56,841 nt of DNA from a virus (IMGVR_UViG_3300049811_000087:1-56841); one strand, 5' to 3'. Shown: positions 10,218 to 56,653, counted from the first letter of the stretch. Notes: a model not told the origin generated them from the letters alone. Program-made: numbers and translations.

Positions 10218-10568
10218 TTGTCCATGGAGACTAGCATATTAACAAGTACTAAAAAAGTATTAGGACTTGATGAAGGCTATGATGCTTTTGATCCGGATAT
10301 CGTCATGTTTATTAATGCCGCTTTATCAACCCTGAGTCAACTAGGCATAGGCCCAGAAGATTCGTTGGTTATAAGTGGCCCGGATGATGAGTGGGATGAT
10401 TTATTTATTCCAGATAACCAGCTTAGTCTGGTAAAAACTTACGTATTTTTGAAGACAAGGATGTTGTTCGATCCTCCTGGGACTCCTTTTCTTACTAATG
10501 CTATGAAAGAACAACTCCAGGAATACGAATGGCGCCTACAAGCGTTTGTTGAAACGGAGACAACATGA
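10218..10568 (+). CDS. Head-tail adaptor (putative)
   Basis: SILTSTKKVLG...FDPDI...LSQLGIG...FDPP...EWRL; context. Confidence 0.6.
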   Translation: MSMETSILTSTKKVLGLDEGYDAFDPDIVMFINAALSTLSQLGIGPEDSLVISGPDDEWDDLFIPDNQLSLVKTYVFLKTRMLFDPPGTPFLTNAMKEQLQEYEWRLQAFVETETT

Positions 10569-10993
10569 CTCTCTCAACTCAAGAGTTTCTTGCGCATTAC
10601 GGCGTCAAAGGAATGAAATGGGGCGTACGGAAAGCGCCAGATAGATCGCGGTCTGCATCAAACTGGAAAGCTCGTAAAGACAAAGAACGTGCTGCAAAAC
10701 TTGAGAAGGCCAGCTCGAGTAAAAGAAATGCAGCAAAGAAGATGTCTGACGACGAACTTAAGGCTGCAGTACAGCGGCTTCAGTTAGAAAAACAGTACGT
10801 CGAACTTAGCCAACAGCCACAACAGTTAACTCGCGGACAAAAGTTTGCAAAAGATCTTGGAGACATTGCTGTTGAAGTGGCAAAGACTCAGATCAAAAAC
10901 ACAGCCAACGCCGTGTTAAAGAAAGAACTTGAAAAGCGTCTTGGGATTAAAACTGAACCTAAGAAAAAAAAAGTAAAGAAGGAAAAGACGTAA
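10565..10993 (+). CDS. Basic protein with LAHYGVKGMKWGVR leader
   Basis: N-terminal FLAHYGVKGMKWGVRK; MSDDELK...RLQLEKQY; Lys/Arg-rich. Confidence 0.7.
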   Translation: MTLSTQEFLAHYGVKGMKWGVRKAPDRSRSASNWKARKDKERAAKLEKASSSKRNAAKKMSDDELKAAVQRLQLEKQYVELSQQPQQLTRGQKFAKDLGDIAVEVAKTQIKNTANAVLKKELEKRLGIKTEPKKKKVKKEKT

Positions 10994-11066
10994 GAGAAAC
11001 GACTTGGGCTCCTGGTAAAGGTCCAAAAGTAGGAACTAAGAAGAAAGACTAAAGGGGGCGGTTTGA

Positions 11067-12812
11067 TTGGGCTTATCGAATACCGCAGTCCCAAAGTATT
11101 ATGGTGAGTTTCGCGACGCTGTTCTTCGTGGAGAGATACCTGTAAATAGAGAAGTATCGCTTGAAATGAACCGGATAGATGACCTAATAGCCAACCCAAA
11201 CATCTATTACGATGATCAGGCTATTGATGGATTTATCAAATACTGCGAAATGGAACTAACTCTAACTGACGGCGGAGATCTCTACCTTTTAGACACCTTC
11301 AAGCTATGGGCTGAACAGATCTTCGGTTGGTACTACTTTGTCGAAAGGAGTGTTTATCAGCCAGGTCAAAATGGAAGTCCTGGAGGGTATGTTAAGAAGC
11401 TAATTAAAAAGCGCCTTACCACTAAGCAGTATCTGATCGTCGCACGAGGTGCCGCAAAGTCGATGTATGCGGCGTGTATTCAGGGATATTTTTTAAATGT
11501 TGACACATCAACGACACATCAGGTAACTACGGCCCCCACTATGAAGCAGGCCGACGAGGTTATGTCGCCGCTTAGAACAGCGATCACAAGGTCGAGAGGA
11601 CCTCTGTTTAAATTCTTGACAGAGGGCTCAATTCGAAACACGTCTGGGTCCGCTGCAGAGCGAGTCAAGCTTGCTTCTACGAAAAAGGGCATTGAGAACT
11701 TTCTAACGGGGTCCCTACTCGAGATTCGACCGATGTCGATCAATAAGTTGCAAGGGCTTCGCCCTAAAGTCTCAACAATTGACGAGTGGCTTTCTGGAGA
11801 CATCCGTGAAGATGTGGTAGGTGCTATCGAGCAGGGCGCATCCAAGATGGATGACTACTTAATTGTTGCGATCAGTTCTGAAGGAACAGTTCGAAATGGT
11901 TCTGGCGACACCATTAAGATGGAGCTTGCAGAAATTCTAAAAGGCGAGTATCAAGCTCCCCACATCTCCATATGGCACTATAAGCTCGACGATGTAGAAG
12001 AGGTTGCTGATCCCTCAACCTGGATCAAAGCCAACCCAAACCTAGGCAAAACCGTTACTTATGATGTTTACCACCTTGACGTTGAGCGTGCAGAAAAAGC
12101 CCCAGCGTCTAGAAACGACATCCTTGCCAAGCGCTTTGGGATCCCTATGGAAGGCTACACGTACTTCTTTACATATGAGGAAACCATACCGCATAGGTCA
12201 AGAGAGTTCTGGACAACACCTTGCGCTCTAGGCGCAGACCTTTCTCAAGGTGATGACTTCTGTGCGTTTACATTTTTGTTTCCTCTTGGCAACGGTAGTT
12301 TTGGAATAAAGACAAGAAGTTACATCACAACACTAACTCTTATGAAACTTCCAGCGGCAATGCGTATAAAGTACGAAGAGTTTATTAATGAGGGTTCCCT
12401 CCAAGTTCTTGATGGAAACGTCCTTGACATGATGGAGGTCTATGACGACCTCGACGAGTTTATAATCCAGAACGAATACGATGTTCGATGTCTGGGGTTT
12501 GACCCTTACAACGCCAAAGAGTTTGTGGCTAGATGGGAATCCGAAAACGGACCATACGGAATAGAAAAAGTAATTCAAGGCGCTAAAACAGAGTCGGTTC
12601 CTCTTGGAGAATTAAAGATTCTTGCCGAACAGAAAGCGCTTATATTTGACCAAGCGCTATTTTCGTTTGCTATGGGTAACGCTATTACTCTAGAAGACAC
12701 AAACGGTAATCGTAAACTTTTAAAGAAACGAGCCGAGGAAAAAATCGATAACGTTTCTGCTGCTCTAGACGCATATATTGCCTACAAAGCCAACAAGGAG
12801 GCCTTTGAATGA
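11067..12812 (+). CDS. terL: Terminase large subunit
   Basis: ARGAAKS Walker A, IDEW Walker B, GADLS / FDPYN / KIDNV nuclease motifs. Confidence 0.92.
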   Translation: MGLSNTAVPKYYGEFRDAVLRGEIPVNREVSLEMNRIDDLIANPNIYYDDQAIDGFIKYCEMELTLTDGGDLYLLDTFKLWAEQIFGWYYFVERSVYQPGQNGSPGGYVKKLIKKRLTTKQYLIVARGAAKSMYAACIQGYFLNVDTSTTHQVTTAPTMKQADEVMSPLRTAITRSRGPLFKFLTEGSIRNTSGSAAERVKLASTKKGIENFLTGSLLEIRPMSINKLQGLRPKVSTIDEWLSGDIREDVVGAIEQGASKMDDYLIVAISSEGTVRNGSGDTIKMELAEILKGEYQAPHISIWHYKLDDVEEVADPSTWIKANPNLGKTVTYDVYHLDVERAEKAPASRNDILAKRFGIPMEGYTYFFTYEETIPHRSREFWTTPCALGADLSQGDDFCAFTFLFPLGNGSFGIKTRSYITTLTLMKLPAAMRIKYEEFINEGSLQVLDGNVLDMMEVYDDLDEFIIQNEYDVRCLGFDPYNAKEFVARWESENGPYGIEKVIQGAKTESVPLGELKILAEQKALIFDQALFSFAMGNAITLEDTNGNRKLLKKRAEEKIDNVSAALDAYIAYKANKEAFE

Positions 12813-13550: not shown

Positions 13551-14804
13551 GTGGCAGTTCTAGATAGAGTTAAAAGTGCCTGGAATGCATTTAGGGATTC
13601 CGATCGAATTTGGACCTCCTCTAGCTCGCCAACGGGGTCTTCGTCCTTAACTCGGCCAGATCAAAATCGTTATCGTAACTACTATAGTGAAAAATCGATC
13701 ATTACCTCTATCTATACTCGAATGAGCATAGATGTAGCTAGCGTTGGGTTTAACCACGTAGAGTTGGATGAACAAGGCCGTTATCTGAAAGACAAAGACA
13801 GCGCTTTACAGAAAGCGTTGACTTTAGAAGCAAATATCGATCAAGGACCTAGGGCTTTTCGCCAAGACATCGCTATGACCTTATTTGACAAAGGGGTAGC
13901 GGCGATTGTTCCTGTAGATGCAACAAAAGATCCAAACACAAATGAAGTTTTTGATATTTACACGTTGCGTGTTGGCGATGTCCTTGAATGGTATCCAAAA
14001 CACGTAAAGGTTCGGGTTTGGAACGAAGCAAAAGGACTTAGAGAAGATATAACATTAGAAAAACGTTATGTGGCTATTGTGGAGAATCCTCTCTACGCGG
14101 TCATGAACGAACCTAATGGAACCCTACAGAGGTTGATTCGAAAACTAACGCTTCTTGACGCTGTTGATGAGCAGTCAGGCTCTGGTAAACTTGATTTGAT
14201 TATACAGCTGCCTTACGCCGTTAAATCTGAGGCCAGAAAGAAACAAGCCGAAGAGAGACGAGAGTCTATTGAGCTCCAACTCAAAGGTAGCCAGTATGGT
14301 ATTGCTTATGCTGACGCAACAGAAAAGATTACTCAGTTAAACCGTCCTGCCGAGAACAATCTTCTCCAGCAGATTGAGTACTTGACTAAAATGCTGTATG
14401 GTCAATTGGGTATAACAGAAGACATTATGAACGGTACGGCTGACGAAACTGCCATGCTAAATTACCATAATAGATCTATAGACCCAATTATTCAGGCTAT
14501 AACAGAAGCTATGCAGCGCTCCTTTATTGGACCGACGGGTGTCAGTAAACGCGAAAAGATACAGTACTTTAAGGACCCATTTAAACTTGTTCCGGTTAGT
14601 AGTCTTGCTGAGATTGCGGATAAGTTTACTCGTAACGAGATTCTAACCTCAAATGAGATTCGGCATTATATGGGTATTCCACCAGCTAAGGATCCTAAGG
14701 CAGATCAATTAGTCAATAGCAACATGCCTCAAACCGAGACAATTGCCCCGACTGAAACAACTCAGTCTGGTCTTTCTGTTGCTGATGTCGACGCAAAGAG
14801 TTAA
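13551..14804 (+). CDS. Portal protein
   Basis: AGGAGG RBS; 417 aa; between TerL and capsid; LTSNEIR..MG C-terminal motif. Confidence 0.85.
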   Translation: MAVLDRVKSAWNAFRDSDRIWTSSSSPTGSSSLTRPDQNRYRNYYSEKSIITSIYTRMSIDVASVGFNHVELDEQGRYLKDKDSALQKALTLEANIDQGPRAFRQDIAMTLFDKGVAAIVPVDATKDPNTNEVFDIYTLRVGDVLEWYPKHVKVRVWNEAKGLREDITLEKRYVAIVENPLYAVMNEPNGTLQRLIRKLTLLDAVDEQSGSGKLDLIIQLPYAVKSEARKKQAEERRESIELQLKGSQYGIAYADATEKITQLNRPAENNLLQQIEYLTKMLYGQLGITEDIMNGTADETAMLNYHNRSIDPIIQAITEAMQRSFIGPTGVSKREKIQYFKDPFKLVPVSSLAEIADKFTRNEILTSNEIRHYMGIPPAKDPKADQLVNSNMPQTETIAPTETTQSGLSVADVDAKS

Positions 14805-14857: not shown

Positions 14858-16861
14858 ATGGAAGCAGATTTCAGCGGCTACGCCACTAAGGCGGGGCTGA
14901 AATGTTCAGACGGGCGAACCATCATGCCCGATGCCTTTAAGCATCAGGATAAAGTTCAAGTCCCCCTCGTCTGGCAGCATGGGCACACTGACCCCGAGAA
15001 CGTTCTTGGTCACGCCATTCTCGAAGCTCGGGAGGATGGGGTCTATGCCTATGGGTTCTTTAATCAGACAAAGAAGGCGCACGCAGCTCGAGAGCTTCTG
15101 GAGCACAAAGACATTAGAATGATGTCCATTTGGGCAAATGATCTTATTGAGCGTGCTGGACGTGTTCTTCATGGAGCAATTCGTGAGGTTAGTCTGGTCC
15201 TGAACGGGGCCAATCCTGGCGCAATTATCGAGAATGTTACCATTCGTCATTCTGATGGTGACATGGAACTTGATGATGAGGCTATTATTTACACGGGCTT
15301 AGAGATTGAGCTCAGCCACTCGGAGTCGGACGAAGAGTCGGATGAAGAGGAAGATACCGAAGATAATGACGATAATGACGATAGTGAGTCTGACGAGCTT
15401 GCACACGCAGATACTGCTGACGAAGACGATGACGATGAAGAGAGTGTCGCTGATGTTTATGAGTCAATGACTGATAAGCAGAAAGACGTTCTCCATTACA
15501 TGCTCGGGGAAGCTCTTGCTTCGGCCGAGTCCGACAAAGAAGATAACCTGTCCCAGGACAACATGGATCAGAAAGGCAGCGACGAAATGGGTCGTACTAA
15601 CGTTTTTGAGGACACCAAAGAGAGCCAGGAAGAGACGCACGTTCTCTCTCACTCTGACATTGAGGGCATTGTCAGCGAGGCTGCAACCCGTGGGTCGCTG
15701 AAGAAAGCGGTTGAGAGCTACGCTCTTGCTCACGGCATCACCAACATCGACATCCTCTTCCCCGAGGCGCAGGCTATTGCCAACACGCCGGAGTGGTTTG
15801 GTCGTCGGACCGATTGGGTTGAGAAGGTTCTCGGTGGTTGCCGCAAGAGCCCCTTCAGCCGGATCAAGACCCTTTGGGCAGATCTCAATGAGGACGAGGC
15901 TCGGGCGAAGGGTTACATCACCGGTAACATGAAGAAGGAAGAGTTCTTCTCGGTTGCCAAGCGAGTTACCACCCCCACCACCGTGTACAAGAAGCAGGCT
16001 CTCGATCGTGATGACATGATCGATATCACCGACTTCGATATTGTTGCTTGGCTCAAGGGTGAGATGCGGCTGATGCTGGATGAGGAAATCGCACGAGCGA
16101 TTCTCATTGGCGACGGTCGTGATATTTCGTCCGATGACAAGATCAACGAGCAGTGCATCCGCCCCATCGCTCGGGATCATGAGCTTTACACCACCGTGGT
16201 TAACGTCAACATTGACGACCCGAACTCCTCGGTGCAGGAGATCATCGACGCCATTGTGACCAACCGCAAGCACCTGCGTGGCACGGGTCTTCCCACCCTC
16301 TACACCACCGAGACCTACATCGCTAAGTTCCTTCTGCTGAAGGACACGCTGGGTCGTCGAATTTACAAGAACCTCGATGAGGTCGCTTCCGAGCTCCGTG
16401 TGACCGAGATCGTTTCGGTTGAGGTTATGGAGGAGGACCCGAATCTGGTTGCGGTTCTCGTCAACCCGGTTGACTACGTCATTGGTGCTACCCGTGGTGG
16501 TGAGGTCGGAATGTTTGATGATTTTGACATCGACTACAACCGCTACAAGTACCTGATTGAGACGCGAGTCTCTGGTGCGCTTACCAAGCTGAAGGCCGCG
16601 ATGGTCGTTCGCAAGGTTGCTGGCTCGGCGACGCTGGTTACTCCGGCTGCTCCCGCATTTAACGGCACTGCTGTGACCATCACCAACCAGCCTGGCGTTA
16701 TCTACAAGAACGCCGCTACCGACGCCACCATGACCGCCGTCGGTTCGCCGTACACGGTTGCTGAGGGCGCTACGCTTACGGTTGTGGCAACCCCGGCTTC
16801 GGGTTACTACTTCGCCACCAGCGAGGATGACACCTGGTCGTTCACCAACGAAGAGGATTGA
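14858..16861 (+). CDS. Fused prohead protease - acidic scaffold linker - HK97-fold major capsid protein with C-terminal Ig-like domain
   Basis: FSGYA...VPLVWQH...GHA...MSI...EVSLV..GANP (HK97-type protease); D/E-rich linker; EEIARAILIGDG capsid motif; strongly biased codons. Confidence 0.88.
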   Translation: MEADFSGYATKAGLKCSDGRTIMPDAFKHQDKVQVPLVWQHGHTDPENVLGHAILEAREDGVYAYGFFNQTKKAHAARELLEHKDIRMMSIWANDLIERAGRVLHGAIREVSLVLNGANPGAIIENVTIRHSDGDMELDDEAIIYTGLEIELSHSESDEESDEEEDTEDNDDNDDSESDELAHADTADEDDDDEESVADVYESMTDKQKDVLHYMLGEALASAESDKEDNLSQDNMDQKGSDEMGRTNVFEDTKESQEETHVLSHSDIEGIVSEAATRGSLKKAVESYALAHGITNIDILFPEAQAIANTPEWFGRRTDWVEKVLGGCRKSPFSRIKTLWADLNEDEARAKGYITGNMKKEEFFSVAKRVTTPTTVYKKQALDRDDMIDITDFDIVAWLKGEMRLMLDEEIARAILIGDGRDISSDDKINEQCIRPIARDHELYTTVVNVNIDDPNSSVQEIIDAIVTNRKHLRGTGLPTLYTTETYIAKFLLLKDTLGRRIYKNLDEVASELRVTEIVSVEVMEEDPNLVAVLVNPVDYVIGATRGGEVGMFDDFDIDYNRYKYLIETRVSGALTKLKAAMVVRKVAGSATLVTPAAPAFNGTAVTITNQPGVIYKNAATDATMTAVGSPYTVAEGATLTVVATPASGYYFATSEDDTWSFTNEED

Positions 16862-17507: not shown

Positions 17508-18392
17508 ATGGCAGTTCTCGAATGGGACGGCGTTGGCGACCGGAAATACGAAACCGGTGTAGACCGCGGCGTTCTTTACATGCCAAACGGCTCTGGAGTT
17601 TACGACAATGGCGTGGCCTGGAACGGTCTCGTCTCGGTTACCGAGAGCCCGAGCGGTGCTGAGGCCAACCCTCAGTATGCTGATAACGTCAAGTACCTGA
17701 ACTTGTTCTCTGCCGAGGAGTTTGGTGCTACGATTGAGGCATTCACTTACCCCGACGAGTTTGCTGAGTTTGACGGTCTTGGTGTTCCCACTGCTGGCGT
17801 CACTATTGGTCAGCAGGCACGTCGGTCCTTTGGTCTGTCGTACCGCACCAAGCTCGGCAACGACGTTGAGGGCGACGATCTGGGCTACAAGCTGCATCTG
17901 GTTTACGGCTGCTCCGCCAGCCCCTCGGAGAAGGCTTACACCACGATCAACGACTCGCCTGAGGCCATCACCTTTAGTTGGGAAATCACGACGATCCCTG
18001 TTGCGGTTACTGGCATGCGCCCAACCGCTCTTGTGACTGTCGACTCCACCAAGGTTGCCCCCGCTGATCTTCTTGAACTTGAGAATCTTCTTTGGGGTAC
18101 TCAGGCGCAGGACCCTCGACTGCCGCTTCCGGATGAGGTCATCTCGATTCTCAGCGCTGTTCAGACTCCGGTTATGACCCAGAACCCGTCGTTTGTTGCG
18201 GGCACCGGCGTTATTACCATTCCGACCGTCACCGGCGTTCGTTACTACCGGGCCGACACCGAGGCTACCGTTACGGGCACTGTTACTATTGGTACACCTG
18301 GCGCAACTCTGGTTATCCGGGCTGAGCCCGCAACCTCGGCATACGTCCTGGCTCCCAACAGTGACGATTCTTGGTCGTTCACCCGTAGCTGA
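17508..18392 (+). CDS. Major tail protein with C-terminal Ig-like domain
   Basis: YETGVDRGVLY...AWNGL...YADNVKY...FTYPDEF; biased codons. Confidence 0.85.
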   Translation: MAVLEWDGVGDRKYETGVDRGVLYMPNGSGVYDNGVAWNGLVSVTESPSGAEANPQYADNVKYLNLFSAEEFGATIEAFTYPDEFAEFDGLGVPTAGVTIGQQARRSFGLSYRTKLGNDVEGDDLGYKLHLVYGCSASPSEKAYTTINDSPEAITFSWEITTIPVAVTGMRPTALVTVDSTKVAPADLLELENLLWGTQAQDPRLPLPDEVISILSAVQTPVMTQNPSFVAGTGVITIPTVTGVRYYRADTEATVTGTVTIGTPGATLVIRAEPATSAYVLAPNSDDSWSFTRS

Positions 18393-46246: not shown

Positions 46247-46265
46247 GCAAAAACTAACAAAATTC

Positions 46266-46285
46266 ACAACGCTTATAATGAGAGA
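46266..46285 (+). promoter_or_regulatory. Promoter-like motif copy 4
   Basis: ACAACGCTTATAATGAGAGA. Confidence 0.8.
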
Positions 46286-46314
46286 GAACACCAACCCCAT
46301 ACGGAGGAATCATC

Positions 46315-46554
46315 ATGGAAGAGTTCAACAGCATCGAGACCGAGCTGGAGACCGACACCGAAGAGACTGACACCGAGGCAGGTTCGGTTCTTGCCACCGT
46401 CGCCGTGTTCGGCATCGGCACCATCGTGGGTGCTGCTGCTGCACGTGGCTACGACAAGGCGAAGACCACCGTCAAGGAGCAGCTCGAGGCTCGTCGGGCC
46501 CGCAAGGCCGCGATCGCGAACGCCATCGAGACCACCGCCACAGAGGCGAAGTGA
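46315..46554 (+). CDS. Cassette gene: acidic N-terminus plus hydrophobic segment
   Basis: GGAGG RBS; GC3-rich codons. Confidence 0.7.
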   Translation: MEEFNSIETELETDTEETDTEAGSVLATVAVFGIGTIVGAAAARGYDKAKTTVKEQLEARRARKAAIANAIETTATEAK

Positions 46555-46558
46555 CTCA

Positions 46559-46610
46559 AGAGGAAGTGTCCCTTGTAGCGTAAAACCTACAAGGGCTCTT
46601 TCTTTTTCTT
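46559..46610 (+). terminator. Intrinsic terminator
   Basis: CCCTTGTAG/CTACAAGGG stem plus T-tract. Confidence 0.7.
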
Positions 46611-46621
46611 AAACAACTTTT

Positions 46622-46641
46622 ACAACGCCTATAATGAGAGA
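46622..46641 (+). promoter_or_regulatory. Promoter-like motif copy 5
   Basis: ACAACGCCTATAATGAGAGA. Confidence 0.8.
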
Positions 46642-46658
46642 CTACCAAAGGAGTTTAA

Positions 46659-46802
46659 ATGAGCGTACTGATCAGATTCTTCGATCTTGTCGAGAGCAAT
46701 CGTCAGCGTGAAGAAAAGCGTCGTCAGAACAAAAGCCGTAACCGGATGATGTTCATGACGTTCGGACTAGCTGGCTTGTTCCTGGGAAGGAAGAAGAGCT
46801 GA
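46659..46802 (+). CDS. Cassette gene, 47 aa (not in ORF track)
   Basis: AAGGAG RBS; MSVLIRFFDLVESNRQREEKRRQNKSRNRMMFMTFGLAGLFLGRKKS. Confidence 0.65.
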   Translation: MSVLIRFFDLVESNRQREEKRRQNKSRNRMMFMTFGLAGLFLGRKKS

Positions 46803-46827
46803 AGACACCCACTACCGGGTGGACTCT

Positions 46828-46859
46828 AAAAGAGGGGCACTGCGGTGCCTTTCTTTTTT
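46828..46859 (+). terminator. Intrinsic terminator
   Basis: AAAAGAGGGGCAC-TGCG-GTGCCTTTCTTTTTT. Confidence 0.7.
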
Positions 46860-46886
46860 GATTTAATCTAGTAAGGAGCTTTTGCT

Positions 46887-47072
46887 ATGTTTTTAGTTTT
46901 TATCCCACTGGGAATTTCTGCAGCGACTCTGGCGTACACCTATGTTGTGAGTAAGAAGATCAAAGAAGATATTGCTGTGTTGGATGGTACTCTCGAGGGT
47001 CTTATTGACGCTTTATATCAGGAACGCATTGACGGTATGTTTAAATTTATAACAGAAGAGCTCGACGATTAG
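46887..47072 (+). CDS. Small membrane protein
   Basis: AAGGAG RBS; N-terminal TM; no promoter motif of its own. Confidence 0.6.
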   Translation: MFLVFIPLGISAATLAYTYVVSKKIKEDIAVLDGTLEGLIDALYQERIDGMFKFITEELDD

Positions 47073-47080
47073 CATTTTTC

Positions 47081-47100
47081 GCAACGCTTATAATGAGAGA
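47081..47100 (+). promoter_or_regulatory. Promoter-like motif copy 6
   Basis: GCAACGCTTATAATGAGAGA. Confidence 0.8.
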
Positions 47101-47117
47101 CTACAGAGGAGAATGCA

Positions 47118-47282
47118 ATGTTTTGGATTGTTTATTCATACGTCGTCGCCGTTACCATCGGAATTCTCGGTTTCATCATCTGGAGCCTAAAGCAAGATCT
47201 TCACGCCGCAGATGAGTACATCGATGAACTCGAGGAAAAGTGCGATACGCTGGATAAGTTCCGACAGATCGTCATGAACTGA
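47118..47282 (+). CDS. Cassette gene, 54-aa TM plus coiled-coil peptide (not in ORF track)
   Basis: GAGGAG RBS; MFWIVYSYVVAVTIGILGFIIWSLKQDLHAADEYIDELEEK... Confidence 0.7.
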   Translation: MFWIVYSYVVAVTIGILGFIIWSLKQDLHAADEYIDELEEKCDTLDKFRQIVMN

Positions 47283-47290
47283 AGGAGTTG

Positions 47291-47330
47291 AAAAGTTGAG
47301 GGGGTTACTACAACCCCTCTTCTTTTTTCT
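47291..47330 (+). terminator. Intrinsic terminator
   Basis: GAGGGGGTT/AACCCCTC stem plus T-tract. Confidence 0.7.
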
Positions 47331-47340
47331 AACATATTTC

Positions 47341-47360
47341 ACAACGCCTATAATGAGAGA
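47341..47360 (+). promoter_or_regulatory. Promoter-like motif copy 7
   Basis: ACAACGCCTATAATGAGAGA. Confidence 0.8.
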
Positions 47361-47378
47361 CTACCAAAGGAGTAACCT

Positions 47379-47552
47379 ATGGAGAAGTTGAAGACCAAGC
47401 TCAAGAAGGAATGGGAAGAGCGCCCGATCATCGTGATCACAGCCGGAAGCGTGGCAGCAAGCATGCTGATCAAGCTGCTGGAAGTGACGAACGAGACGCG
47501 CAACTCCCGTGCCTGGGCGAAGGAGGTCAAGCGACGCTCCAAGATGTCCTGA
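47379..47552 (+). CDS. Cassette gene, 57 aa (not in ORF track)
   Basis: AAGGAG RBS; MEKLKTKLKKEWEERPIIVITAGSVAASMLIKLL... Confidence 0.7.
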   Translation: MEKLKTKLKKEWEERPIIVITAGSVAASMLIKLLEVTNETRNSRAWAKEVKRRSKMS

Positions 47553-47560
47553 GCAACATC

Positions 47561-47600
47561 TCAAAAGGAGAAGGCCCCACAAGGCTTTCTCTTTTTTCTT
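47561..47600 (+). terminator. Intrinsic terminator (repeat family)
   Basis: AAAAGGAGAAGGCC-CCACAA-GGCTTTCTCTTTTTT. Confidence 0.75.
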
Positions 47601-47610
47601 AACATTTTTC

Positions 47611-47630
47611 GCAACGCTTATAATGAGAGA
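47611..47630 (+). promoter_or_regulatory. Promoter-like motif copy 8
   Basis: GCAACGCTTATAATGAGAGA. Confidence 0.8.
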
Positions 47631-47644
47631 CATAAGGAGAAATC

Positions 47645-47779
47645 ATGCAGATGTACCAGATGTCAGAGAAAGAAGCATCACGAGCACTGGCCCGCTTTGT
47701 CGTCACATTTGTGGCGCTCAAGGTGGCCCTGTACGTGAGCATCAACCTACTGGCACGGGCACTTCGCGAGAAGTCCTGA
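47645..47779 (+). CDS. Cassette gene, 44-aa TM peptide (not in ORF track)
   Basis: AAGGAG RBS; MQMYQMSEKEASRALARFVVTFVALKVALYVSINLLARALREKS. Confidence 0.7.
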   Translation: MQMYQMSEKEASRALARFVVTFVALKVALYVSINLLARALREKS

Positions 47780-47781
47780 AG

Positions 47782-47820
47782 TCAAAAAGAGGGGGCCCCA
47801 CAAGGCTTTCTCTTTTTTCT
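47782..47820 (+). terminator. Intrinsic terminator (repeat family)
   Basis: AAAAAGAGGGGGCC-CCACAA-GGCTTTCTCTTTTTT. Confidence 0.75.
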
Positions 47821-47830
47821 AACATTTTTC

Positions 47831-47850
47831 GCAACGCTTATAATGAGAGA
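47831..47850 (+). promoter_or_regulatory. Promoter-like motif copy 9
   Basis: GCAACGCTTATAATGAGAGA. Confidence 0.8.
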
Positions 47851-47867
47851 CAACAAGAGGAGACATA

Positions 47868-48032
47868 ATGTTCTGGATGCTATTCACAATCATCTTGTCG
47901 ATCGTCACCGCAACCGCCATCGGCGTTGCCGTCTACGCACTACTCGAAGAGTACAGGCAGATGGCACAGCAGATCAAGGAAGACGAAGAACAGATCGATG
48001 AGTTGAAGCGAACCATCATGAGCCTGGTCTAA
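47868..48032 (+). CDS. Cassette gene, 54-aa TM plus coiled-coil peptide (not in ORF track)
   Basis: GAGGAG RBS; MFWMLFTIILSIVTATAIGVAVYALLEEYRQMAQQIKEDEEQIDELKR... Confidence 0.7.
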   Translation: MFWMLFTIILSIVTATAIGVAVYALLEEYRQMAQQIKEDEEQIDELKRTIMSLV

Positions 48033-48042
48033 CAAGATCATC

Positions 48043-48080
48043 TCAAAAAGAGGAGGCCCCACAAGGCTTCCCTTTTTTCT
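48043..48080 (+). terminator. Intrinsic terminator (repeat family)
   Basis: AAAAAGAGGAGGCC-CCACAA-GGCTTCCCTTTTTT. Confidence 0.75.
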
Positions 48081-48091
48081 TAACATTATCT

Positions 48092-48111
48092 ACAATGCTT
48101 ATAATGAGAGA
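48092..48111 (+). promoter_or_regulatory. Promoter-like motif copy 10
   Basis: ACAATGCTTATAATGAGAGA. Confidence 0.78.
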
Positions 48112-48127
48112 CACAGAAGGAGAAATC

Positions 48128-48262
48128 ATGTTGGAAACAACAATCTTGGTCATGTTGGTCTTGTTCCCGCTCTTCGTCCTGCTCATCACCTGGTTGGTGG
48201 TGTTCAAGGCGTTGGGATGGATCAAGAACAGCATCGGCCGGTTGTTCACCCTGCGTGGATGA
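48128..48262 (+). CDS. Cassette gene, 44-aa TM peptide (not in ORF track)
   Basis: AAGGAG RBS; MLETTILVMLVLFPLFVLLITWLVVFKALGWIKNSIGRLFTLRG. Confidence 0.7.
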   Translation: MLETTILVMLVLFPLFVLLITWLVVFKALGWIKNSIGRLFTLRG

Positions 48263-48274
48263 CACACACGTGTT

Positions 48275-48311
48275 GAAAAGAGGGGGCCCTACAAGGCTTT
48301 CTCTTTTTTCT
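48275..48311 (+). terminator. Intrinsic terminator (repeat family)
   Basis: AAAAGAGGGGGCC-CTACAA-GGCTTTCTCTTTTTT. Confidence 0.75.
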
Positions 48312-48322
48312 TAACATGTTCT

Positions 48323-48342
48323 ACAACGCCTATAATGAGAGA
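48323..48342 (+). promoter_or_regulatory. Promoter-like motif copy 11
   Basis: ACAACGCCTATAATGAGAGA. Confidence 0.8.
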
Positions 48343-48361
48343 CGACAAAAGGAGAATTGTC

Positions 48362-48547
48362 ATGAAGACCAATGAGGAATTGAAGACTACCCGAGCGAAC
48401 ATCGACATCGACTGGAACCTAGTTCTGGTTGCCCTGTGTACTTACTGGGCGACACTGGACGGAACCACGCCGGTGTCCGCGGCTCTCAAGGAAGAAATCT
48501 TCGAGGAGATCAAAAGCCTATCACGACAAGTCGGACTGAATATCTGA
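48362..48547 (+). CDS. Cassette gene, 61 aa
   Basis: AAGGAG RBS before ATG 48362; the track start 48335 is inside the promoter motif. Confidence 0.7.
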   Translation: MKTNEELKTTRANIDIDWNLVLVALCTYWATLDGTTPVSAALKEEIFEEIKSLSRQVGLNI

Positions 48548-48548
48548 C

Positions 48549-48588
48549 TCAAAAAAGGAATAGGCCCTAACAAGGCTTATTCTTTTTT
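48549..48588 (+). terminator. Intrinsic terminator (repeat family)
   Basis: AAAAAAGGAATAGGCC-CTAACAA-GGCTTATTCTTTTTT. Confidence 0.75.
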
Positions 48589-48601
48589 GCTAACAAAAAC
48601 T

Positions 48602-48621
48602 ACAACGCCTATAATGAGAGA
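48602..48621 (+). promoter_or_regulatory. Promoter-like motif copy 12
   Basis: ACAACGCCTATAATGAGAGA. Confidence 0.8.
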
Positions 48622-48639
48622 CAACAGAAGGAGATTGTA

Positions 48640-48804
48640 ATGTTGAAGGCCATCAAGGTCGTCGTGTACACCATCATCACCATCCTGACCGGACTGGGTA
48701 CGCTCGGAGTCATGGGCTTCGGGTGGATCAGCTACCGCGAGGGTTCGATGAAGAAGGGCGCACTGACCGTCATGGACGCCGTCGACACCATCGACACCAT
48801 CTGA
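48640..48804 (+). CDS. Cassette gene, 54-aa TM peptide (not in ORF track)
   Basis: AAGGAG RBS; MLKAIKVVVYTIITILTGLGTLGVMGFGWISYREG... Confidence 0.7.
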   Translation: MLKAIKVVVYTIITILTGLGTLGVMGFGWISYREGSMKKGALTVMDAVDTIDTI

Positions 48805-48812
48805 GAGCAATC

Positions 48813-48856
48813 TCAAAGGAGAAGGCCCCCTAACAAGGGCTTTCTTCTTTTATTTT
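48813..48856 (+). terminator. Intrinsic terminator (repeat family)
   Basis: AAAGGAGAAGGCCC-CCTAACAA-GGGCTTTCTTCTTT. Confidence 0.7.
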
Positions 48857-48886
48857 CTTAATAACAAAACAATAGGAGGAAAAGTA

Positions 48887-49069
48887 ATGAAGTTCACTGG
48901 AGGATATGTGTTGGGAGCCTTGACGGTCGTTGGCATGGGGGTGTCATTCGTCGCAGGGATTGTCGCATGTGATTGGACATACTCCAAGAAGCAGGAGGCT
49001 GCATCTAAGATTTCAGACGCAACGGTAGCAAGCGTCATCGGTGAGTACATCAAGGCAAAGAGGAACTAA
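48887..49069 (+). CDS. Small membrane protein
   Basis: AGGAGG RBS; N-terminal TM. Confidence 0.65.
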   Translation: MKFTGGYVLGALTVVGMGVSFVAGIVACDWTYSKKQEAASKISDATVASVIGEYIKAKRN

Positions 49070-49299
49070 TGGTCATTATCCCGATTGAACCGAACACTTT
49101 GGATATCATCGCTGCTATGAACGGTGGTTTGAAGCCAAAGATCGACCCCAAGGAACATTCGAGCTTCATCTATCATGGTAAAGACAAGCTGAACGAGATT
49201 GTGCCTTCGATCTACGTTGGTACTTTATTGGCGTCTGGAGACTATCAGATAATCGAGATGCGGGCGATTGTCAAGAACGTTGAAGAAAAAGGAGTATAA
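49069..49299 (+). CDS. Hypothetical protein
   Basis: TAATG overlap. Confidence 0.6.
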   Translation: MVIIPIEPNTLDIIAAMNGGLKPKIDPKEHSSFIYHGKDKLNEIVPSIYVGTLLASGDYQIIEMRAIVKNVEEKGV

Positions 49300-49451
49300 T
49301 GTCAGAGAAGCCTGTCGGTAAAGAGACGTACGAGATTCTCAAGATCCTTAAGCAGACCTACATCGATGAGGGTCTGTGGATGAAGAATCGTATTCGGTGC
49401 GAGAACATCCAGGCAGACATCGACCTTTACGAGAGGTTCAACAAAAAATAA
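49299..49451 (+). CDS. Hypothetical protein, 50 aa (not in ORF track)
   Basis: AAGGAG RBS, TAATG overlap; MSEKPVGKETYEILK... Confidence 0.6.
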   Translation: MSEKPVGKETYEILKILKQTYIDEGLWMKNRIRCENIQADIDLYERFNKK

Positions 49452-49459
49452 CAGGTTTT

Positions 49460-49479
49460 ACAACGCTTATAACGAGAGA
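49460..49479 (+). promoter_or_regulatory. Promoter-like motif copy 13
   Basis: ACAACGCTTATAACGAGAGA. Confidence 0.75.
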
Positions 49480-49496
49480 CAACAGAAGGAGTTGTA

Positions 49497-49730
49497 ATGC
49501 TTGCAGTAACCGCATTCTGGTCGAACGATTCGTTCCGACTGAACTACGTGTCTGACGACATCGCAGAAGCTGTTCCGAGCGCTTTCATCAAGGCTTACCC
49601 TGAGGGGGCGGCCATGGTGAAGAAGCACATCGAGAGCAGGAAGCTGACGAAGTCCGGCAAATACGTGTTCGTCACGGGCGAAGATGGACGACTGCTAGGG
49701 TACGAGCGAGTACGAGACAACGAGGGCTGA
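49497..49730 (+). CDS. Cassette gene, 77 aa
   Basis: AAGGAG RBS. Confidence 0.7.
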   Translation: MLAVTAFWSNDSFRLNYVSDDIAEAVPSAFIKAYPEGAAMVKKHIESRKLTKSGKYVFVTGEDGRLLGYERVRDNEG

Positions 49731-49738
49731 AAGGAGCT

Positions 49739-49775
49739 CAAAAGGTTGGGGGTGGCAACACCCCTTTCCTTTTTT
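49739..49775 (+). terminator. Intrinsic terminator
   Basis: GGGGTG-GCAA-CACCCC stem plus T-tract. Confidence 0.7.
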
Positions 49776-49787
49776 GTCACATTATTC

Positions 49788-49807
49788 ACAACGCTTATAA
49801 TGAGAGA
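49788..49807 (+). promoter_or_regulatory. Promoter-like motif copy 14
   Basis: ACAACGCTTATAATGAGAGA. Confidence 0.8.
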
Positions 49808-49826
49808 CAACCATAAGGAGACTAAG

Positions 49827-53473: not shown

Positions 53474-53984
53474 TCCTAGTAACTATCATTGGATCAACTA
53501 TAGTGATGCCAAACTAGAAGCTAGGTATACAGCAGCGCAAGCAGCTCGACGAGGAACTGATCTTCATTTATTGGCCCACGAAGCCATTCGATTAGGTGTC
53601 AAATTAGCAAAAAGTAATTTAGCATTGTCGACATACGTCAATGATGCAATTAACTACAAGATGACTTCAGAACAAATCTTGTATTACTCAGACAATTGTT
53701 TTGGTACAGCAGATACTATTTGTTTTCGTCGAAATAAATTAAGGATTCATGACCTGAAAACCGGCGTAACACCAACCAGTGAAAAACAACTGGAAGTTTA
53801 TGCTGCTCTATTTTGTTTAGAGTATGATGTGTTTCCTTATGATATTTCGATAGAATTGCGGATCTATCAAAATGATGAAATTCGCGTATTTGACCCAGTT
53901 CCGGAAGCAATCGAATCTATTATGGGTGTTATAGTTGAGCACAACAACCGAATTGAAGAGTTTCGCAGACAACAGAATCTTTGA
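53424..53984 (+). CDS. Cas4/RecB-like PD-(D/E)xK exonuclease (DUF2800-like)
   Basis: HAFLSPS...GT.LH...E...GTAD...IHDLKTG...QL..YA. Confidence 0.75.
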   Translation: MRFNQHLDLKDKHAFLSPSNYHWINYSDAKLEARYTAAQAARRGTDLHLLAHEAIRLGVKLAKSNLALSTYVNDAINYKMTSEQILYYSDNCFGTADTICFRRNKLRIHDLKTGVTPTSEKQLEVYAALFCLEYDVFPYDISIELRIYQNDEIRVFDPVPEAIESIMGVIVEHNNRIEEFRRQQNL

Positions 53985-53998
53985 GAAGGAGGGGTAAC

Positions 53999-56653
53999 GT
54001 GTATATTGACGAACAAACATATCTTGCACATTATGGTACCCCTCGACACTCGGGACGGTATCCTTGGGGATCTGGAGGAGATCCTCGAAACAGCCGATCA
54101 TTTTTAGAAATGGTAAAGGACCTTATTAAACAAGGGTTTACTGAAAAAGAAGTTGCCGATTCTTTTGGAATCTCAACAACTGATCTTCGAGCCTATAAGT
54201 CCATTGCCAAAGCAGAAGTTAAACAAGAGCAAATTCTTCAAGCTGAGAAACTTAAAGCAAAAGGCGTTTCTGATCTACAAGCAGCTAAGCAGATGGGCAT
54301 CCCTACGTCCACCTACAAAACGCTTCTACTGCCCTCGGCAAAACTTAAGCAAGACGCCATTCAAGTCGCCGTCGAGGTGCTCAAGAATCAGGTAGACAAA
54401 GTAGAATATCTTGACGTTGGCGCAGGAACAGAAATGTATTTGGGCCTAAGTCCTCAGCGTTTGAAACAAGCTCTTACAATCCTAAAAGCTGAAGGATATA
54501 ACATTTATTCAAATATCCCAGTTCCTCAGCTTGGCACCAGCCATGACACTAAGCTTCGTGTGTTAACAACTCCAGATAAAACATGGACAGACACTAGGCT
54601 TAATGTAGAGAAAGTAAAGCTTCTAAATGAACATCTTGATGATACAGGAAGAGGGTCTTTAGGAATTCTTCCGCCCATTGCAATAAATCCAAATAGGGTT
54701 GCTGTTAAATATGGGTCTGAAGGTGGAGCCAATGCGGACGGTGTGATGTACATTCGTCCTGGCGCTAAAGATCTTGATCTTGGCGGAAAAACTTATGCTC
54801 AGGTTCGAATTCAAGTTGGTGATAAACATTATCTTAAAGGTATGGCCCTCTACAAAGATGACCTTCCTGACGGTGTTGACATTTTGTTTAATACCAATAA
54901 AGAAAGCACAGGTAACAAACTTGATGCTTTGAAGAAGCTTGAATCAGATCCCGACAATCCCTTTGGTGCCCAGATTCGGCGTCAGATCACAAAGCTAGAT
55001 CCAAAGACTGGTAAAGAAGTCAATGCGTCAGCAGTTAACATAGTTAATGAAGAAGGTGGTTGGAGTGATTGGTCTAGAAGTATCGCTTCTCAGGTCCTCT
55101 CTAAACAGTCTCCTTCATTGGCTAGAGAAAGACTTGACGTAACCTACAAGCAAAGGAAAGCCGATCTTGATGAGATCATGGCTTTGACTAATCCAACAGT
55201 TAAAAAGAAATTGTTAGAAGAGTTTGCTGAAGGTACCGATGCTGCATCAATCCATCTTAAAGCGGCAAGTCTTCCTAAACAAGCTTGGCATGTTATCTTA
55301 CCAGTTAATTCTTTGTCTGAAACAGAAGTGTACGCACCTAACTATGACAATGGGCAACGAGTTGTGTTGATTAGGTATCCTCATGGAGGAACGTTTGAAA
55401 TACCTGAACTCATTGTCAACAACAGTAACAGAGAAGCTCGTCGACTTCTTAAAGACGCTAAAGATGCTATAGCTATTAACGCTAAGGTAGCAGAGCGTCT
55501 GTCTGGTGCAGACTTTGATGGCGACACTGTGTTGGTTATACCAAATGAATCTAACAAGATCAAATCGTCTAAGCCTCTACAAGGATTGATTAACTTCAAT
55601 CCAAGAGAAACTTATCGAGAGTATCCAGGCATGCCGGTTATGAAGAACACTCAGCAACAAATGGGTGAGATCTCTAATCTAATTACCGACATGACACTTA
55701 GGCAAGCTTCTAGAGAAGAACTAGAGCGAGCAGTTAAGCATTCAATGGTTGTTATTGACGCTGAGAAACATCGCCTTAACCACAAGCAATCATACAAAGA
55801 TCATGGCATCAAGGCACTGAAAGAAAAGTATCAAGCCAAACCGGATGGTACTGCAGGTGGAGCCAGCACTCTAATCTCTAGAGCCAAGAAGAAACCACCA
55901 ATCCCTGAGGTTCGGCTAAGGAAGCAAAGTGAAGGCGGACCTGTAGACAAGAAAACTGGCGAATTAGTCTATGTTCCAACAGGTAGAATAGATAATCGGA
56001 CAGGCAAACCAGCTAAAGTTCGAGGCTTTCTTACTGAGATGGAACTGGCTAGAGATGCTAGTACCCTATCATCGGGTACTCGTATGGAGAATCTCTATGC
56101 AGACCACGCCAATAAACTTAAGACAATGGCTAATCAAGCCAGACTCGAGAGCATCCGTACACCACGTGCACCCTACTCCAGGTCAGCCAAACAAGTATAC
56201 TCAAAGCAAGTAGATTCTTTAGAGCGCAAACTAACCGAGGCTAAGCTTAACGCCCCCCTTGAACGCCGTGCCCAGATCCTAGGTAATGAGATTCTTAAAC
56301 AAAAGAAGGCTGACAATCCAGCATTGGATCCTTCATCTGAAAAGAAACTAAAGTCTCAAGCCTTGGAAGAAGCACGTAATAGGACAGGCGCTAAAAAGAA
56401 GAAGATTGACATCACCCCTGACGAATGGGCAGCCATTCAAGCAGGTGCTATTAGTGATACTAAACTAAAGTCAATCCTTGACAACGCTGACATGGATAAG
56501 GTTAGAGAGTATGCAACTCCTAAGAACAAACTTTTGATGTCACCCAACAAGGTGGCTCGAGCGCAAGCTCTGCTTGAGAAGTATACAAGGGCTGAAGTAG
56601 CAGCTCGTCTTGGTGTTTCCCTTTCCACATTAGACAGATCGTTAGGAGGATGA
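53999..56653 (+). CDS. Putative single-subunit two-barrel (double-psi beta-barrel) RNA polymerase with N- and C-terminal HTH domains
   Basis: AGGAGG RBS with GTG 53999; ADGVMYI...AQVRI...LKGMA; LIRYPH...AIAIN..V...SGADFDGDTVLVIP; HTH-like EVADSFGIS, AAKQMGIP, EVAARLGVSLSTL. Confidence 0.75.
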   Translation: MYIDEQTYLAHYGTPRHSGRYPWGSGGDPRNSRSFLEMVKDLIKQGFTEKEVADSFGISTTDLRAYKSIAKAEVKQEQILQAEKLKAKGVSDLQAAKQMGIPTSTYKTLLLPSAKLKQDAIQVAVEVLKNQVDKVEYLDVGAGTEMYLGLSPQRLKQALTILKAEGYNIYSNIPVPQLGTSHDTKLRVLTTPDKTWTDTRLNVEKVKLLNEHLDDTGRGSLGILPPIAINPNRVAVKYGSEGGANADGVMYIRPGAKDLDLGGKTYAQVRIQVGDKHYLKGMALYKDDLPDGVDILFNTNKESTGNKLDALKKLESDPDNPFGAQIRRQITKLDPKTGKEVNASAVNIVNEEGGWSDWSRSIASQVLSKQSPSLARERLDVTYKQRKADLDEIMALTNPTVKKKLLEEFAEGTDAASIHLKAASLPKQAWHVILPVNSLSETEVYAPNYDNGQRVVLIRYPHGGTFEIPELIVNNSNREARRLLKDAKDAIAINAKVAERLSGADFDGDTVLVIPNESNKIKSSKPLQGLINFNPRETYREYPGMPVMKNTQQQMGEISNLITDMTLRQASREELERAVKHSMVVIDAEKHRLNHKQSYKDHGIKALKEKYQAKPDGTAGGASTLISRAKKKPPIPEVRLRKQSEGGPVDKKTGELVYVPTGRIDNRTGKPAKVRGFLTEMELARDASTLSSGTRMENLYADHANKLKTMANQARLESIRTPRAPYSRSAKQVYSKQVDSLERKLTEAKLNAPLERRAQILGNEILKQKKADNPALDPSSEKKLKSQALEEARNRTGAKKKKIDITPDEWAAIQAGAISDTKLKSILDNADMDKVREYATPKNKLLMSPNKVARAQALLEKYTRAEVAARLGVSLSTLDRSLGG

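Follow-up and report, generated by a model that had tools for sequence, protein, structure and literature searches.

Candidate maturation-protease sites and a putative head-loading tag shared by a protease–capsid fusion, basic head-region proteins, and an RNA polymerase in a siphophage

The IMG/VR virus record IMGVR_UViG_3300049811_000087 (56,841 bases, estimated to be 95% complete) was analysed whole and is called the window below; it is a near-complete siphophage genome of the 1706/ReqiPepy6/Arthrobacter-AM supercluster. Its head region encodes two small basic proteins (P0001 and P0002) and a fusion protein (P0003) in which a prohead protease is joined through an acidic linker to the major capsid protein, and its last large open reading frame (ORF) encodes a single-subunit RNA polymerase (RNAP). 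P0001, P0002, and the RNAP begin with a leader that ends in hydrophobic-x-His, and the same triplet recurs in the linker of the fusion protein. Why do such different proteins share it? The first-pass annotation of this DNA had proposed that L-x-H is the cleavage site of the maturation protease, that the leader is a capsid-targeting tag, and that the RNAP is packaged and injected to fire an array of promoters. Judged from sequence comparison, we give a probability of roughly 0.6 to a combined model in which the prohead protease cuts at [LIV]-x-His and the leader serves as a targeting and processing tag resembling the capsid-targeting sequence (CTS) of phage T4.

Histidine sites in the linker of the protease–capsid fusion

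Over residues 2-619, the fusion protein matches phrog_3270 'head maturation protease' (E 1.6e-235), and it also matches phrog_3244 (E 5e-7). PF04586 (Peptidase_S78) was unmatched by P0003 at E ≤ 0.01; precomputed PF04586 assignments are present on some close homologues. His41, His43, and Ser90 of the protease domain are invariant in 69 sequences and are the presumable catalytic residues. The capsid part scores 26.9 bits against Pfam Phage_capsid (PF05065, cut-off 24.2), and Foldseek aligns it with the shells of a gene transfer agent, HK97, phi29, and encapsulin (best E 1.5e-6, probability 1.00), which places it in the HK97 fold. The AlphaFold2 (AF2) model of the fusion protein has a mean pLDDT of 67, with a β-rich domain at residues 1-115 and the capsid fold from residue ~293. 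The pLDDT falls below 50 at residues 113-196 and 226-256, and helices occupy residues 197-225 and 265-291. When the PDB was searched with the sequence of the fusion protein, nothing matched at E ≤ 0.01, so that no solved relative supplies the mature N-terminus.

The linker of 170 residues contains six [LIVM]-x-H sites against 1.30 expected, and six were reached in none of 1000 shuffles. Five of them, IRHSD, ELSHSE, ELAHAD, VLSHSD, and ALAHGI, start at nucleotides 15242, 15308, 15395, 15641, and 15722; they had been read in the first pass, and all peptides quoted there, from tags and linker, were found within 3 nucleotides of the positions given. The sixth, VLHYM at 15488, is new. The invariant His131 ends the protease domain. 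His292 lies directly before the start of the capsid fold in the AF2 model, just where ALAHGI had been expected to mark that boundary. Between these two come His154, His183, His213, and His265, two of them in disordered segments and the other two at conserved helices. This six-site arrangement is the layout of a putative maturation cleavage. No excess or deficit of [LIVM]-x-H was seen in the other window proteins tested (TerL, portal, mature capsid, RNAP, DNA polymerase, and others); avoidance of the site was likewise sought in the mature head proteins and the RNAP and was not seen (3 sites against 2.9 expected in the RNAP, 0 against 0.5 in the capsid).

We then aligned 122 sequences with MAFFT, namely P0003, 119 homologues (from the best 120 of 8000 matches), 1706 orf10, and ReqiPoco6 gp26. 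A residue L, I, V, or M stands two positions before 817 of the 894 linker histidines, compared with 428 of the 1117 histidines outside the linker. His is enriched 4.23-fold two residues after L, I, V, or M; Tyr is next (1.83), and Phe and Gln have values of 1.40 and 1.02. His292 is kept in 121 of the 122 sequences (one gap), in the context Y-A-[LI]-x-H-G-I-x-[DN]-I-D-x-L-F-P. The residue after the linker His is mostly S, A, or G, with Y within the conserved helix Q-K-x-V-L-H-Y-M-L-G-E-A-L; these statistics come from a subset, 50 of 120 sequences, selected by a stricter regular expression anchored at the capsid start. A linker holds 6.70 sites on average, compared with 1.56 after shuffling, and in 115 of the 122 the number is higher than the maximum of 200 shuffles, although these figures overstate independence, the fusion proteins being related. 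More telling, as an indication of a signal, is the survival of the pattern in linkers that no longer align. The linker of 1706, ~33% identical, has it at seven of seven histidines (L-I-D-H, M-T-H, I-T-H, L-K-H, I-T-H, L-K-H, and L-K-H), that of ReqiPoco6 at seven of nine, and three IMG/VR loci retain it in otherwise unalignable linkers. The Circum linker reads I-K-H, L-E-H, L-E-H, I-K-H, L-A-H, and L-A-H, the last of which is located five residues further upstream of the capsid start; a last site that is kept while its position shifts is expected of a signal and not of a fold residue.

A metal-binding or structural repeat in a His-rich acidic scaffold, with any maturation cleavage elsewhere, would also produce histidine-rich linkers. 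The linker is indeed richer in His than the rest (4.2% versus 1.8%), divalent cations can be bound by acidic stretches with many histidines, and plaque formation by 1706 requires 10 mM calcium (PMC4155818), all of which we counted in favor of this explanation. However, a hydrophobic residue at -2 and a small one at +1 is the P3/P1/P1' layout of a prohead protease and not that of metal sites; the sites mark the end of the protease and the start of the capsid fold, and most of them lie in segments predicted to be disordered. We consider the metal or structural explanation very improbable.

The SPN3US prohead protease cuts after A-x-E with a preference for Ser at P1' (PMC10052503), and a hydrophobic-x-P1 site followed by Ser has therefore a precedent in its geometry. 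The genome announcements and notes listed for capsid–protease fusions show nothing on cleavage sites in their listed entries; Klyczek 2017 mentions the capsid–protease fusion, and its text contains neither 'mass spectrometry' nor 'promoter'. On the comparative evidence, with the pattern concentrated in the linker and its last member almost universally kept, [LIV]-x-His is very probably the maturation site of the fused protease, and the L-x-H site of the first pass is retained in this broader form. The protease would cut after the linker His, usually before Ser, Ala, or Gly. A cut at His131 would free the protease, the other cuts would chop the scaffold-like linker, and the mature capsid protein would begin at Gly293.

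The N-terminal tag and its carriers

In a six-frame search of the window, the regular expression H[YFW]G..WG matched exactly three times, each time at the N-terminus of an ORF: FLAHYGVKGMKWG in P0001, FLEHYGVKGMKWG in P0002, and YLAHYGTPRHSGRYPWG at the start of the RNAP ORF. The three proteins share an 11-residue, partly acidic leader that ends in aromatic-L-x-His11 and is followed by Y-G...W-G; the His is residue 11 in all three when the RNAP is started at the GTG codon 53999. P0001 and P0002 are members of the Pfam family DUF7211 (PF23847, a profile of 25 positions), with E 1.4e-14 and 53.6 bits for the former and E 4.4e-15 and 55.2 bits for the latter (cut-off 27); on the DNA, the two matches score 58.7 and 55.7 bits. 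Both proteins are basic, with 37 K+R against 17 D+E in P0001 and 42 against 10 in P0002. The single His of P0001 is residue 11. Its tag (residues 1-25) is followed by a conserved R-L-Q-L-E-K-Q-Y helix module, and H11, M17, W19, G20, R22, R71, E75, and L81 are invariant in a family alignment of 27 sequences. Our literature search for DUF7211 or the GMKWG motif found nothing relevant, and the family carries no assigned function. Two other readings were dropped: the tag is not a WXG/ESX secretion signal, its motif being W-G and not W-x-G, and P0001 was rejected as TerS since its counterpart in 1706 is labelled a virion protein.

The tag recurs in related phages. ReqiPoco6 encodes six paralogues between TerL and portal that all start with [DN]-F-L-A-H-Y-G-V-K-G-M-K-W-G and differ in their C-terminal parts, and 1706 orf7 and Circum gp7 contain two copies each. 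A phmmer search of 1.84 billion representatives with P0001 gave 7215 matches at E ≤ 0.001 (669 at E ≤ 1e-10); among the matches listed, 143 of 147 representatives hold one to four tags, with the His of the first tag mostly at residue 11. The position two residues before the His is hydrophobic throughout the 364 tags counted (L 326, I 30, F 6, and V 2), and the His is followed by Y (222), F (91), H (43), V (4), or W (4). We found that the leader sits on unrelated proteins, with its His most often at residue 11, and ends in a hydrophobic-x-His triplet that is also enriched in the linker, as a T4-like CTS should. The gene after the portal gene in Circum (gp11, L006 7441-8052) and ReqiPoco6 (gp025, L001 8190-8840) starts with a half-tag, which in Circum gp11 is D-F-L-E-H-Y without G-M-K-W-G; the window has no gene at that position.

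The RNAP carries a variant of the tag (residues 1-29). Its ties to DUF7211 are three: an aromatic-L-x-H-Y-G and a W-G common to both, and a His at the same position. Among its best 120 homologues, 113 fit the strict expression and five more have P-Y-G or P-W-N variants; the two untagged entries, the 847-residue call in the window and P0041, merely start downstream. With a wider expression, 118 of 119 fit, with the His at residue 9 (2 sequences), 10 (35), 11 (66), 12 (12), 13 (1), or 14 (2). The N-terminus of 1706 orf75 contains S-L-Q-H-Y-G-T-K-R-H-S-G-R-Y-P-W-G and that of Circum gp98 E-L-M-H-Y-G-T-P-R-K-S-G-R-Y-P-W-G; the RNAP of Streptomyces phage HotFries is tagged too, but its annotated start removes the tag. 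Gene callers often lose the tag by choosing a downstream Met, for example in the window (847 residues), in P0041 (844 residues), and in HotFries gp56, so that the tag is hidden in database annotations; the regions concerned include 53981-54130 of the window and L023 401-560. The GTG codon 53999, located behind a GGAGG ribosome-binding site, fits the homologues and gives a protein that starts M-Y-I-D-E-Q-T-Y-L-A-H-Y-G.

Thirty-seven longer tag proteins contain 75 tags, 25 N-terminal and 50 internal, and every internal tag heads a module. A second [LIVM]-x-H lies 9-19 residues (mostly 10-12) upstream of 23 of the 50 internal tags and is usually followed by Ser, while [LIVM]-x-Q-[ST] takes this place in many of the others. 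Taken together, an element [LIVMA]-x-[HQNM]-[STAGM] precedes 42 of the 50, 27 of them at a distance of 10-12, which equals the distance from start codon to His in stand-alone tagged proteins. Given the 1.02-fold frequency of Gln in linkers, we do not count [LIVM]-x-Q-[ST] as a proven protease site and treat it as belonging to an extended tag. The last module is typically a P0001-type unit, consisting of a tag, a basic stretch, and an L-S-x-x-E-L...R-x-x-L-E-x-Q-Y helix. Pfam cargo domains in 106 long representatives (of 112, the six longest being omitted from the count) comprise 11 GNAT acetyltransferases, two 2H phosphoesterase/LigT-like domains, and two DUF6321 domains.

Several observations weigh against the combined model. 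The strongly conserved part of the tag, Y-G-V-K-G-M-K-W-G-V-R, follows the His and would remain on the mature protein, so the tag is no simple removable leader. P1' is aromatic in tags and mostly S, A, or G in linker sites, of which V-L-H-Y alone is tag-like. At module borders, the cut could fall at the upstream [LIVM]-x-H rather than in the tag. The RNAP N-terminus (residues 1-44 or 1-90) is unmatched by Pfam DUF7211 at E values up to 10, and our own tag hidden Markov model (HMM), built from the P0001 family alignment, gives it 6.1 bits (E 0.4); under that model it nevertheless ranks third of 960 six-frame segments, the best non-self one, with P0001 and P0002 alone above it. Finally, the tag was found at 913 places in 230 of 50,697 phage records (Arthrobacter 95, Gordonia 55, Streptomyces 54, Curtobacterium 7, Rhodococcus 4, Microbacterium 4, and Faecalibacterium 2), and tag, RNAP, and fusion protein have equal genus counts except for Lactococcus, an exception explained by the divergence of its tags. 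A single lineage comprises all carriers, and the co-occurrence shows lineage restriction that may reflect inheritance and is no independent association.

The linker sites might be protease sites while the tag stays uncut, as a DUF7211 docking peptide retained on the cargo. Its partner would be the capsid protein, on the inner face, or else the scaffold-like linker or the portal, with L-x-H as part of the binding surface; the cargo-loading peptide of encapsulins and the portal-bound SPP1 gp7 would be its models. Such a peptide would account for the invariant G, M, W, G, and R after the His and for the aromatic P1', and cleavage at the [LIVM]-x-[HQ]-[ST] element 10-12 residues upstream would give many polyproteins an N-terminus with the stand-alone spacing. 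It does not readily explain why the His is invariant and the residue at -2 hydrophobic throughout, exactly as in the linker sites. In L011, L016, and L020, moreover, the capsid linkers have His at every site, yet five of the 11 tags have [ML]-A-Q-[ST] upstream and two a His-type element; at the [ML]-A-Q-[ST] borders, the L-x-H of the tag itself is the only His site. We regard a permanently uncut tag as unlikely, though the most substantial of the alternatives. A complex prediction of the protease domain (residues 1-126) with the P0001 tag (residues 1-45), with a score of 0.02 and a mark of 0.32, weighs neither way.

Returning to the combined model, we find it reasonably probable that the tag directs encapsidation. 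That it is cut at its own His falls slightly short of an even chance, a lower estimate that reflects the conserved residues after the His and the P1' that differs from most linker sites. The capsid-targeting role proposed in the first pass gains support from the retention of the RNAP tag in 118 of 120 homologues; the description of the tag as a leader needs correcting, the conserved part lying behind the His. The leader would act like the CTS of T4 internal proteins and bring tagged proteins into the procapsid, where the acidic linker or the groove of the protease may serve as the docking site of the cargo; the leader would be trimmed at His11, and the basic end Y-G-V-K-G-M-K-W-G would stay on the mature cargo.

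Virion location, RNA polymerase, and gene order

Are the tagged proteins in the virion? The 1706 record (EU081845) labels orf6, orf7 (a DUF7211 protein with two motifs, upstream of TerL), and orf75 (the RNAP homologue) 'structural protein'; RefSeq renames orf75 'RNA-dependent RNA polymerase', and the ReqiPepy6 and ReqiPoco6 records repeat the 1706 labels by similarity only. A caution attaches to the label, which is the depositors' annotation and whose grounds we have not seen. In the window, the homologue of 1706 orf6 is located directly 5' of the first tagged gene, and one tagged gene lies on each side of the TerL gene (Table 1). From the depositors' annotation and the gene position, the RNAP and the DUF7211 proteins are probably virion cargo. 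The packaging and injection of the RNAP, as put forward in the first pass, gains from the label of orf75 and loses from the position of the RNAP tag outside the DUF7211 profile.

The RNAP matches phrog_4291 'RNA-dependent RNA polymerase' (E 0, 1210 bits) and has helix-turn-helix (HTH) domains at both ends. Its D-F-D-G-D loop (nucleotides 55511-55525, within G-A-D-F-D-G-D-T) makes it a member of the DxDGD enzymes, and D511, D513, and D515 are invariant in 72 sequences. The AF2 model, folded from the TTG codon 53981, has a pLDDT of 85.6; the first 38 residues of the ORF, which contain the whole tag, are below 50, suggesting a flexible extension. In Foldseek, QDE-1 is the top match (E 4.8e-11), followed by P74 gp62 (1.5e-8), and the P32 RNAP, plant RDR2, P23-45 gp96, cellular largest subunits, and the phi14:2 virion RNAP (E 6.6e-4) were also matched; the entries for the phi14:2 and P23-45-family enzymes are 6vr4, 8h2m, and 8f5m. 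The overall fold is two-barrel, with low global TM-scores of ~0.28, and the match to Pfam RdRP (PF05183) stays below the cut-off (15.2 versus 23.8 bits, E 0.009). Homologues, none reaching 60% identity, occur in 250 of the 50,697 phage records (Arthrobacter 95, Gordonia 55, Streptomyces 54, Lactococcus 13, and others). The polymerase prediction is already in print: bioRxiv 10.1101/842583 predicted the polymerase of this supercluster from an HHpred match to Pfam RdRP, a DxDGD loop, and HTH domains at both ends. In the window, 1706, Circum, and HotFries alike, the RNAP gene occupies the far right end, and in a joined or concatemeric genome it adjoins the late block.

Promoter-like boxes, ACAACGCYTATAATGAGAGAC, occur 13 times in the window at three or fewer mismatches against 0 expected, all on the + strand (29201, 29671, 39551, 46266-49788, and 53091; the copies at 39.5 and 53.1 kb are weaker). 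All copies are in the non-structural half and the structural half has none; most stand behind a terminator-like hairpin and ahead of a small ORF, forming one-gene units. There are ten copies of T-T-T-A-C-A-N5-C-T-A-T-A-G-T-A-G-A-A-A-G-A in 1706 (L002 24030-42904) and eight of A-T-T-A-C-A-N5-[CG]-T-A-T-A-A-T-G-A in Circum (L006 24968-31596), so that the core TACA-N5-[CG]TATA[AG]T is common to the three. A shared TACA and TATAAT-like hexamer in phages whose hosts belong to two phyla is more easily explained by a conserved phage enzyme than by host sigma factors, and the boxes may accordingly be read by the phage RNAP. A further point against this part of the model is that the boxes contain a perfect TATAAT, the consensus -10 element, which the host sigma-A polymerase may read. 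The proposal that the RNAP fires the array draws support from the conserved core and is left in competition with the host enzyme. The text of bioRxiv 10.1101/842583 does not contain 'promoter', 'packaged', or 'injected', and its 'motif' passages concern polymerase motifs.

A role outside the head has also to be weighed. The tag might act after infection or in the cytoplasm, for instance by binding a host factor or nucleic acid; the RNAP tag would then be a regulatory peptide of an enzyme that stays intracellular like SPbeta YonO, and its resemblance to the linker coincidental. The failure of the RNAP N-terminus against the DUF7211 profile and the unseen grounds of the 1706 label fit this possibility, and no YonO-type enzyme is known to be a virion protein. 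Against it, the tagged genes lie within the head block (small virion protein, TerL, and portal) in the window, 1706, Circum, ReqiPoco6, and ReqiPepy6, 1706 orf7 and orf75 are both labelled structural, and the tag occurs, among the 50,697 phage records, solely in genomes with the protease–capsid fusion. The RNAP gene, in addition, is at the late end, while the candidate promoters precede early genes. A role unrelated to head assembly seems to us quite improbable. Under the combined model, the cargo, including the RNAP, would be ejected with the DNA, and the RNAP would transcribe the early region from the TACA-N5-CTATAAT array.

As a tentative extension, somewhat less probable than its opposite, we propose a lineage-wide head-loading code in siphophages of Actinobacteria and Firmicutes, with a fused protease of unusual specificity (His at P1), a DUF7211 or RNAP-variant tag, polyproteins cut into tagged modules, and injection of the RNAP and variable enzymes; the RNAP would free early transcription from the host, and the GNAT and 2H phosphoesterase proteins could be counter-defence effectors of the first minutes. 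If the combined model is true, the widespread DUF7211 obtains a function, the cleavage code of a large family of protease–capsid fusions is defined, and the entry of a free single-subunit RNAP into the host is explained for long-tailed phages of Gram-positive bacteria. The tag would then be a simple, portable means of loading foreign proteins into such capsids, and the tagged GNAT and 2H-phosphoesterase modules would be candidate injected effectors.

The + strand carries all sizeable ORFs of the window, whose genes were identified by PHROG and Pfam scans (Table 1). The fusion gene is followed by connectors, two major tail proteins, an 1800-residue tape measure, Dit, a minor tail protein, and a holin; the non-structural half encodes a primase-polymerase, many small ORFs, a helicase, and an exonuclease and ends with the 890-codon polymerase ORF (53981-56653). 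The two paralogous major tail protein genes (17508-18392 and 18977-19792, both phrog_2645) are separated by a 180-residue ORF, an arrangement also seen in Circum and ReqiPepy6. Overlapping ORFs (19804-20439 and 20403-20846) occupy the usual position of the frameshifted tail assembly chaperone just 5' of the tape measure (20825-26227), which has no histidine at all; the mature capsid domain (2 in 375 residues) and major tail protein 1 (1 in 294) are also poor in His. Paralogues of phrog_2152, of unknown function, lie after the lysis genes (29923-30666 and 31765-32790). Two small ORFs (43926-44312 and 45151-45504) contain DNA stretches that are 80-87% identical (repeat families D7 and D9) and that suggest a recent duplication within the early region. 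An ORF whose ATG overlaps the polymerase stop codon (56653-56841) runs off the end of the record; in relatives, the last gene is a small conserved ORF at this place, and the record therefore ends just short of the right end.

Table 1. Positions of the features discussed, in nucleotides of the window
Feature	Position	Strand	Evidence
Amidase endolysin	65-607	+	
Tail-fibre-like genes	2479-9795	+	
HNH endonuclease	9792-10205	+	
Small virion protein, 116 aa, homologue of 1706 orf6	10218..10568	+	phrog_4247 'virion structural protein', E 1.1e-40
Tagged basic protein 1 (P0001), 142 aa	10565..10993	+	Pfam DUF7211
TerL	11067..12812	+	Pfam TerL_nuclease, E 9e-36; phrog_9, E 2e-112
Tagged basic protein 2 (P0002), 170 aa	12809..13321	+	Pfam DUF7211
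Portal	13551..14804	+	Pfam Phage_portal, E 7.9e-15; phrog_12, E 4e-39
Protease–linker–capsid fusion (P0003)	14858-16861	+	
Prohead protease domain, residues 1-122	14858..15223	+	phrog_3270, phrog_3244, AF2
Acidic scaffold-like linker, residues 123-292, six [LIV]-x-His sites	15224..15733	+	
Linker His 131, 154, 183, 213, 265, 292	codons from 15248, 15317, 15404, 15494, 15650, 15731		
HK97-fold major capsid protein from Gly293, C-terminal Ig-like domain ~595-667	15734..16861	+	
Dense array of promoter-like boxes, ACAACGCYTATAATGAGAGAC	46248..49812	+	repeat families D1-D6
Two-barrel single-subunit RNAP, 884 aa from GTG	53999..56653	+	phrog_4291, AF2, Foldseek

Comparison with known head-loading systems

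Neither the tag nor the site code nor the promoter core was found described in the literature searched, supplementary files aside. The CTS of T4 is a leader of ~10 residues, and T4 cleavage follows an (L/I)-x-E rule. Like the T4 CTS on Alt and the other internal proteins cut by gp21, the tag is a short N-terminal leader on unrelated, often basic head proteins. Both leaders end in hydrophobic-x-P1, and the T4 cargo is diverse and ejected with the DNA (PMC3012670). In contrast to T4, the putative P1 here is His instead of Glu, and the phage is a Gram-positive siphophage in which the protease is fused to the capsid protein and the cargo includes an RNAP. The order of the parts also differs, since the conserved targeting sequence of T4 precedes the cut and the best conserved part of the present tag follows it, which counts among the points against a T4-like tag.

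In the case of SPN3US, a phiKZ-like phage, gp245 recognizes A-x-E, a P3-x-P1 motif with Ser at P1' that is repeated in long propeptides that are chopped up, and the head contains a virion RNAP and ejection proteins, as proposed here (PMC10052503). The SPN3US RNAP is multisubunit and ~80% of the head proteins are uncut (PMC10052503), whereas in the window the motif is found at residue 11 of the polymerase itself, and the capsid precursor includes the protease.

The proposed packaging also resembles that of N4, crAss phages, and P23-45, whose particles carry a phage polymerase for the first genes. The virion RNAP of N4 is T7-like. The enzymes of crAss phi14:2 and of the P23-45 family are two-barrel like that of the window and are among its fold matches. 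In crAss phages and N4, which are podophages, the enzyme is one part of a very large protein; in contrast, that of the window stands alone, with 884 residues and a short N-terminal tag, and its phage is a long-tailed siphophage. The P23-45 RNAP is fused to the tape measure, and the paper describing it does not mention the present phage group (PMC10770324). The polymerase of bioRxiv 10.1101/842583 belongs to the same family as the enzyme of the window and is presented there without the N-terminal tag, a virion location, or protease sites.

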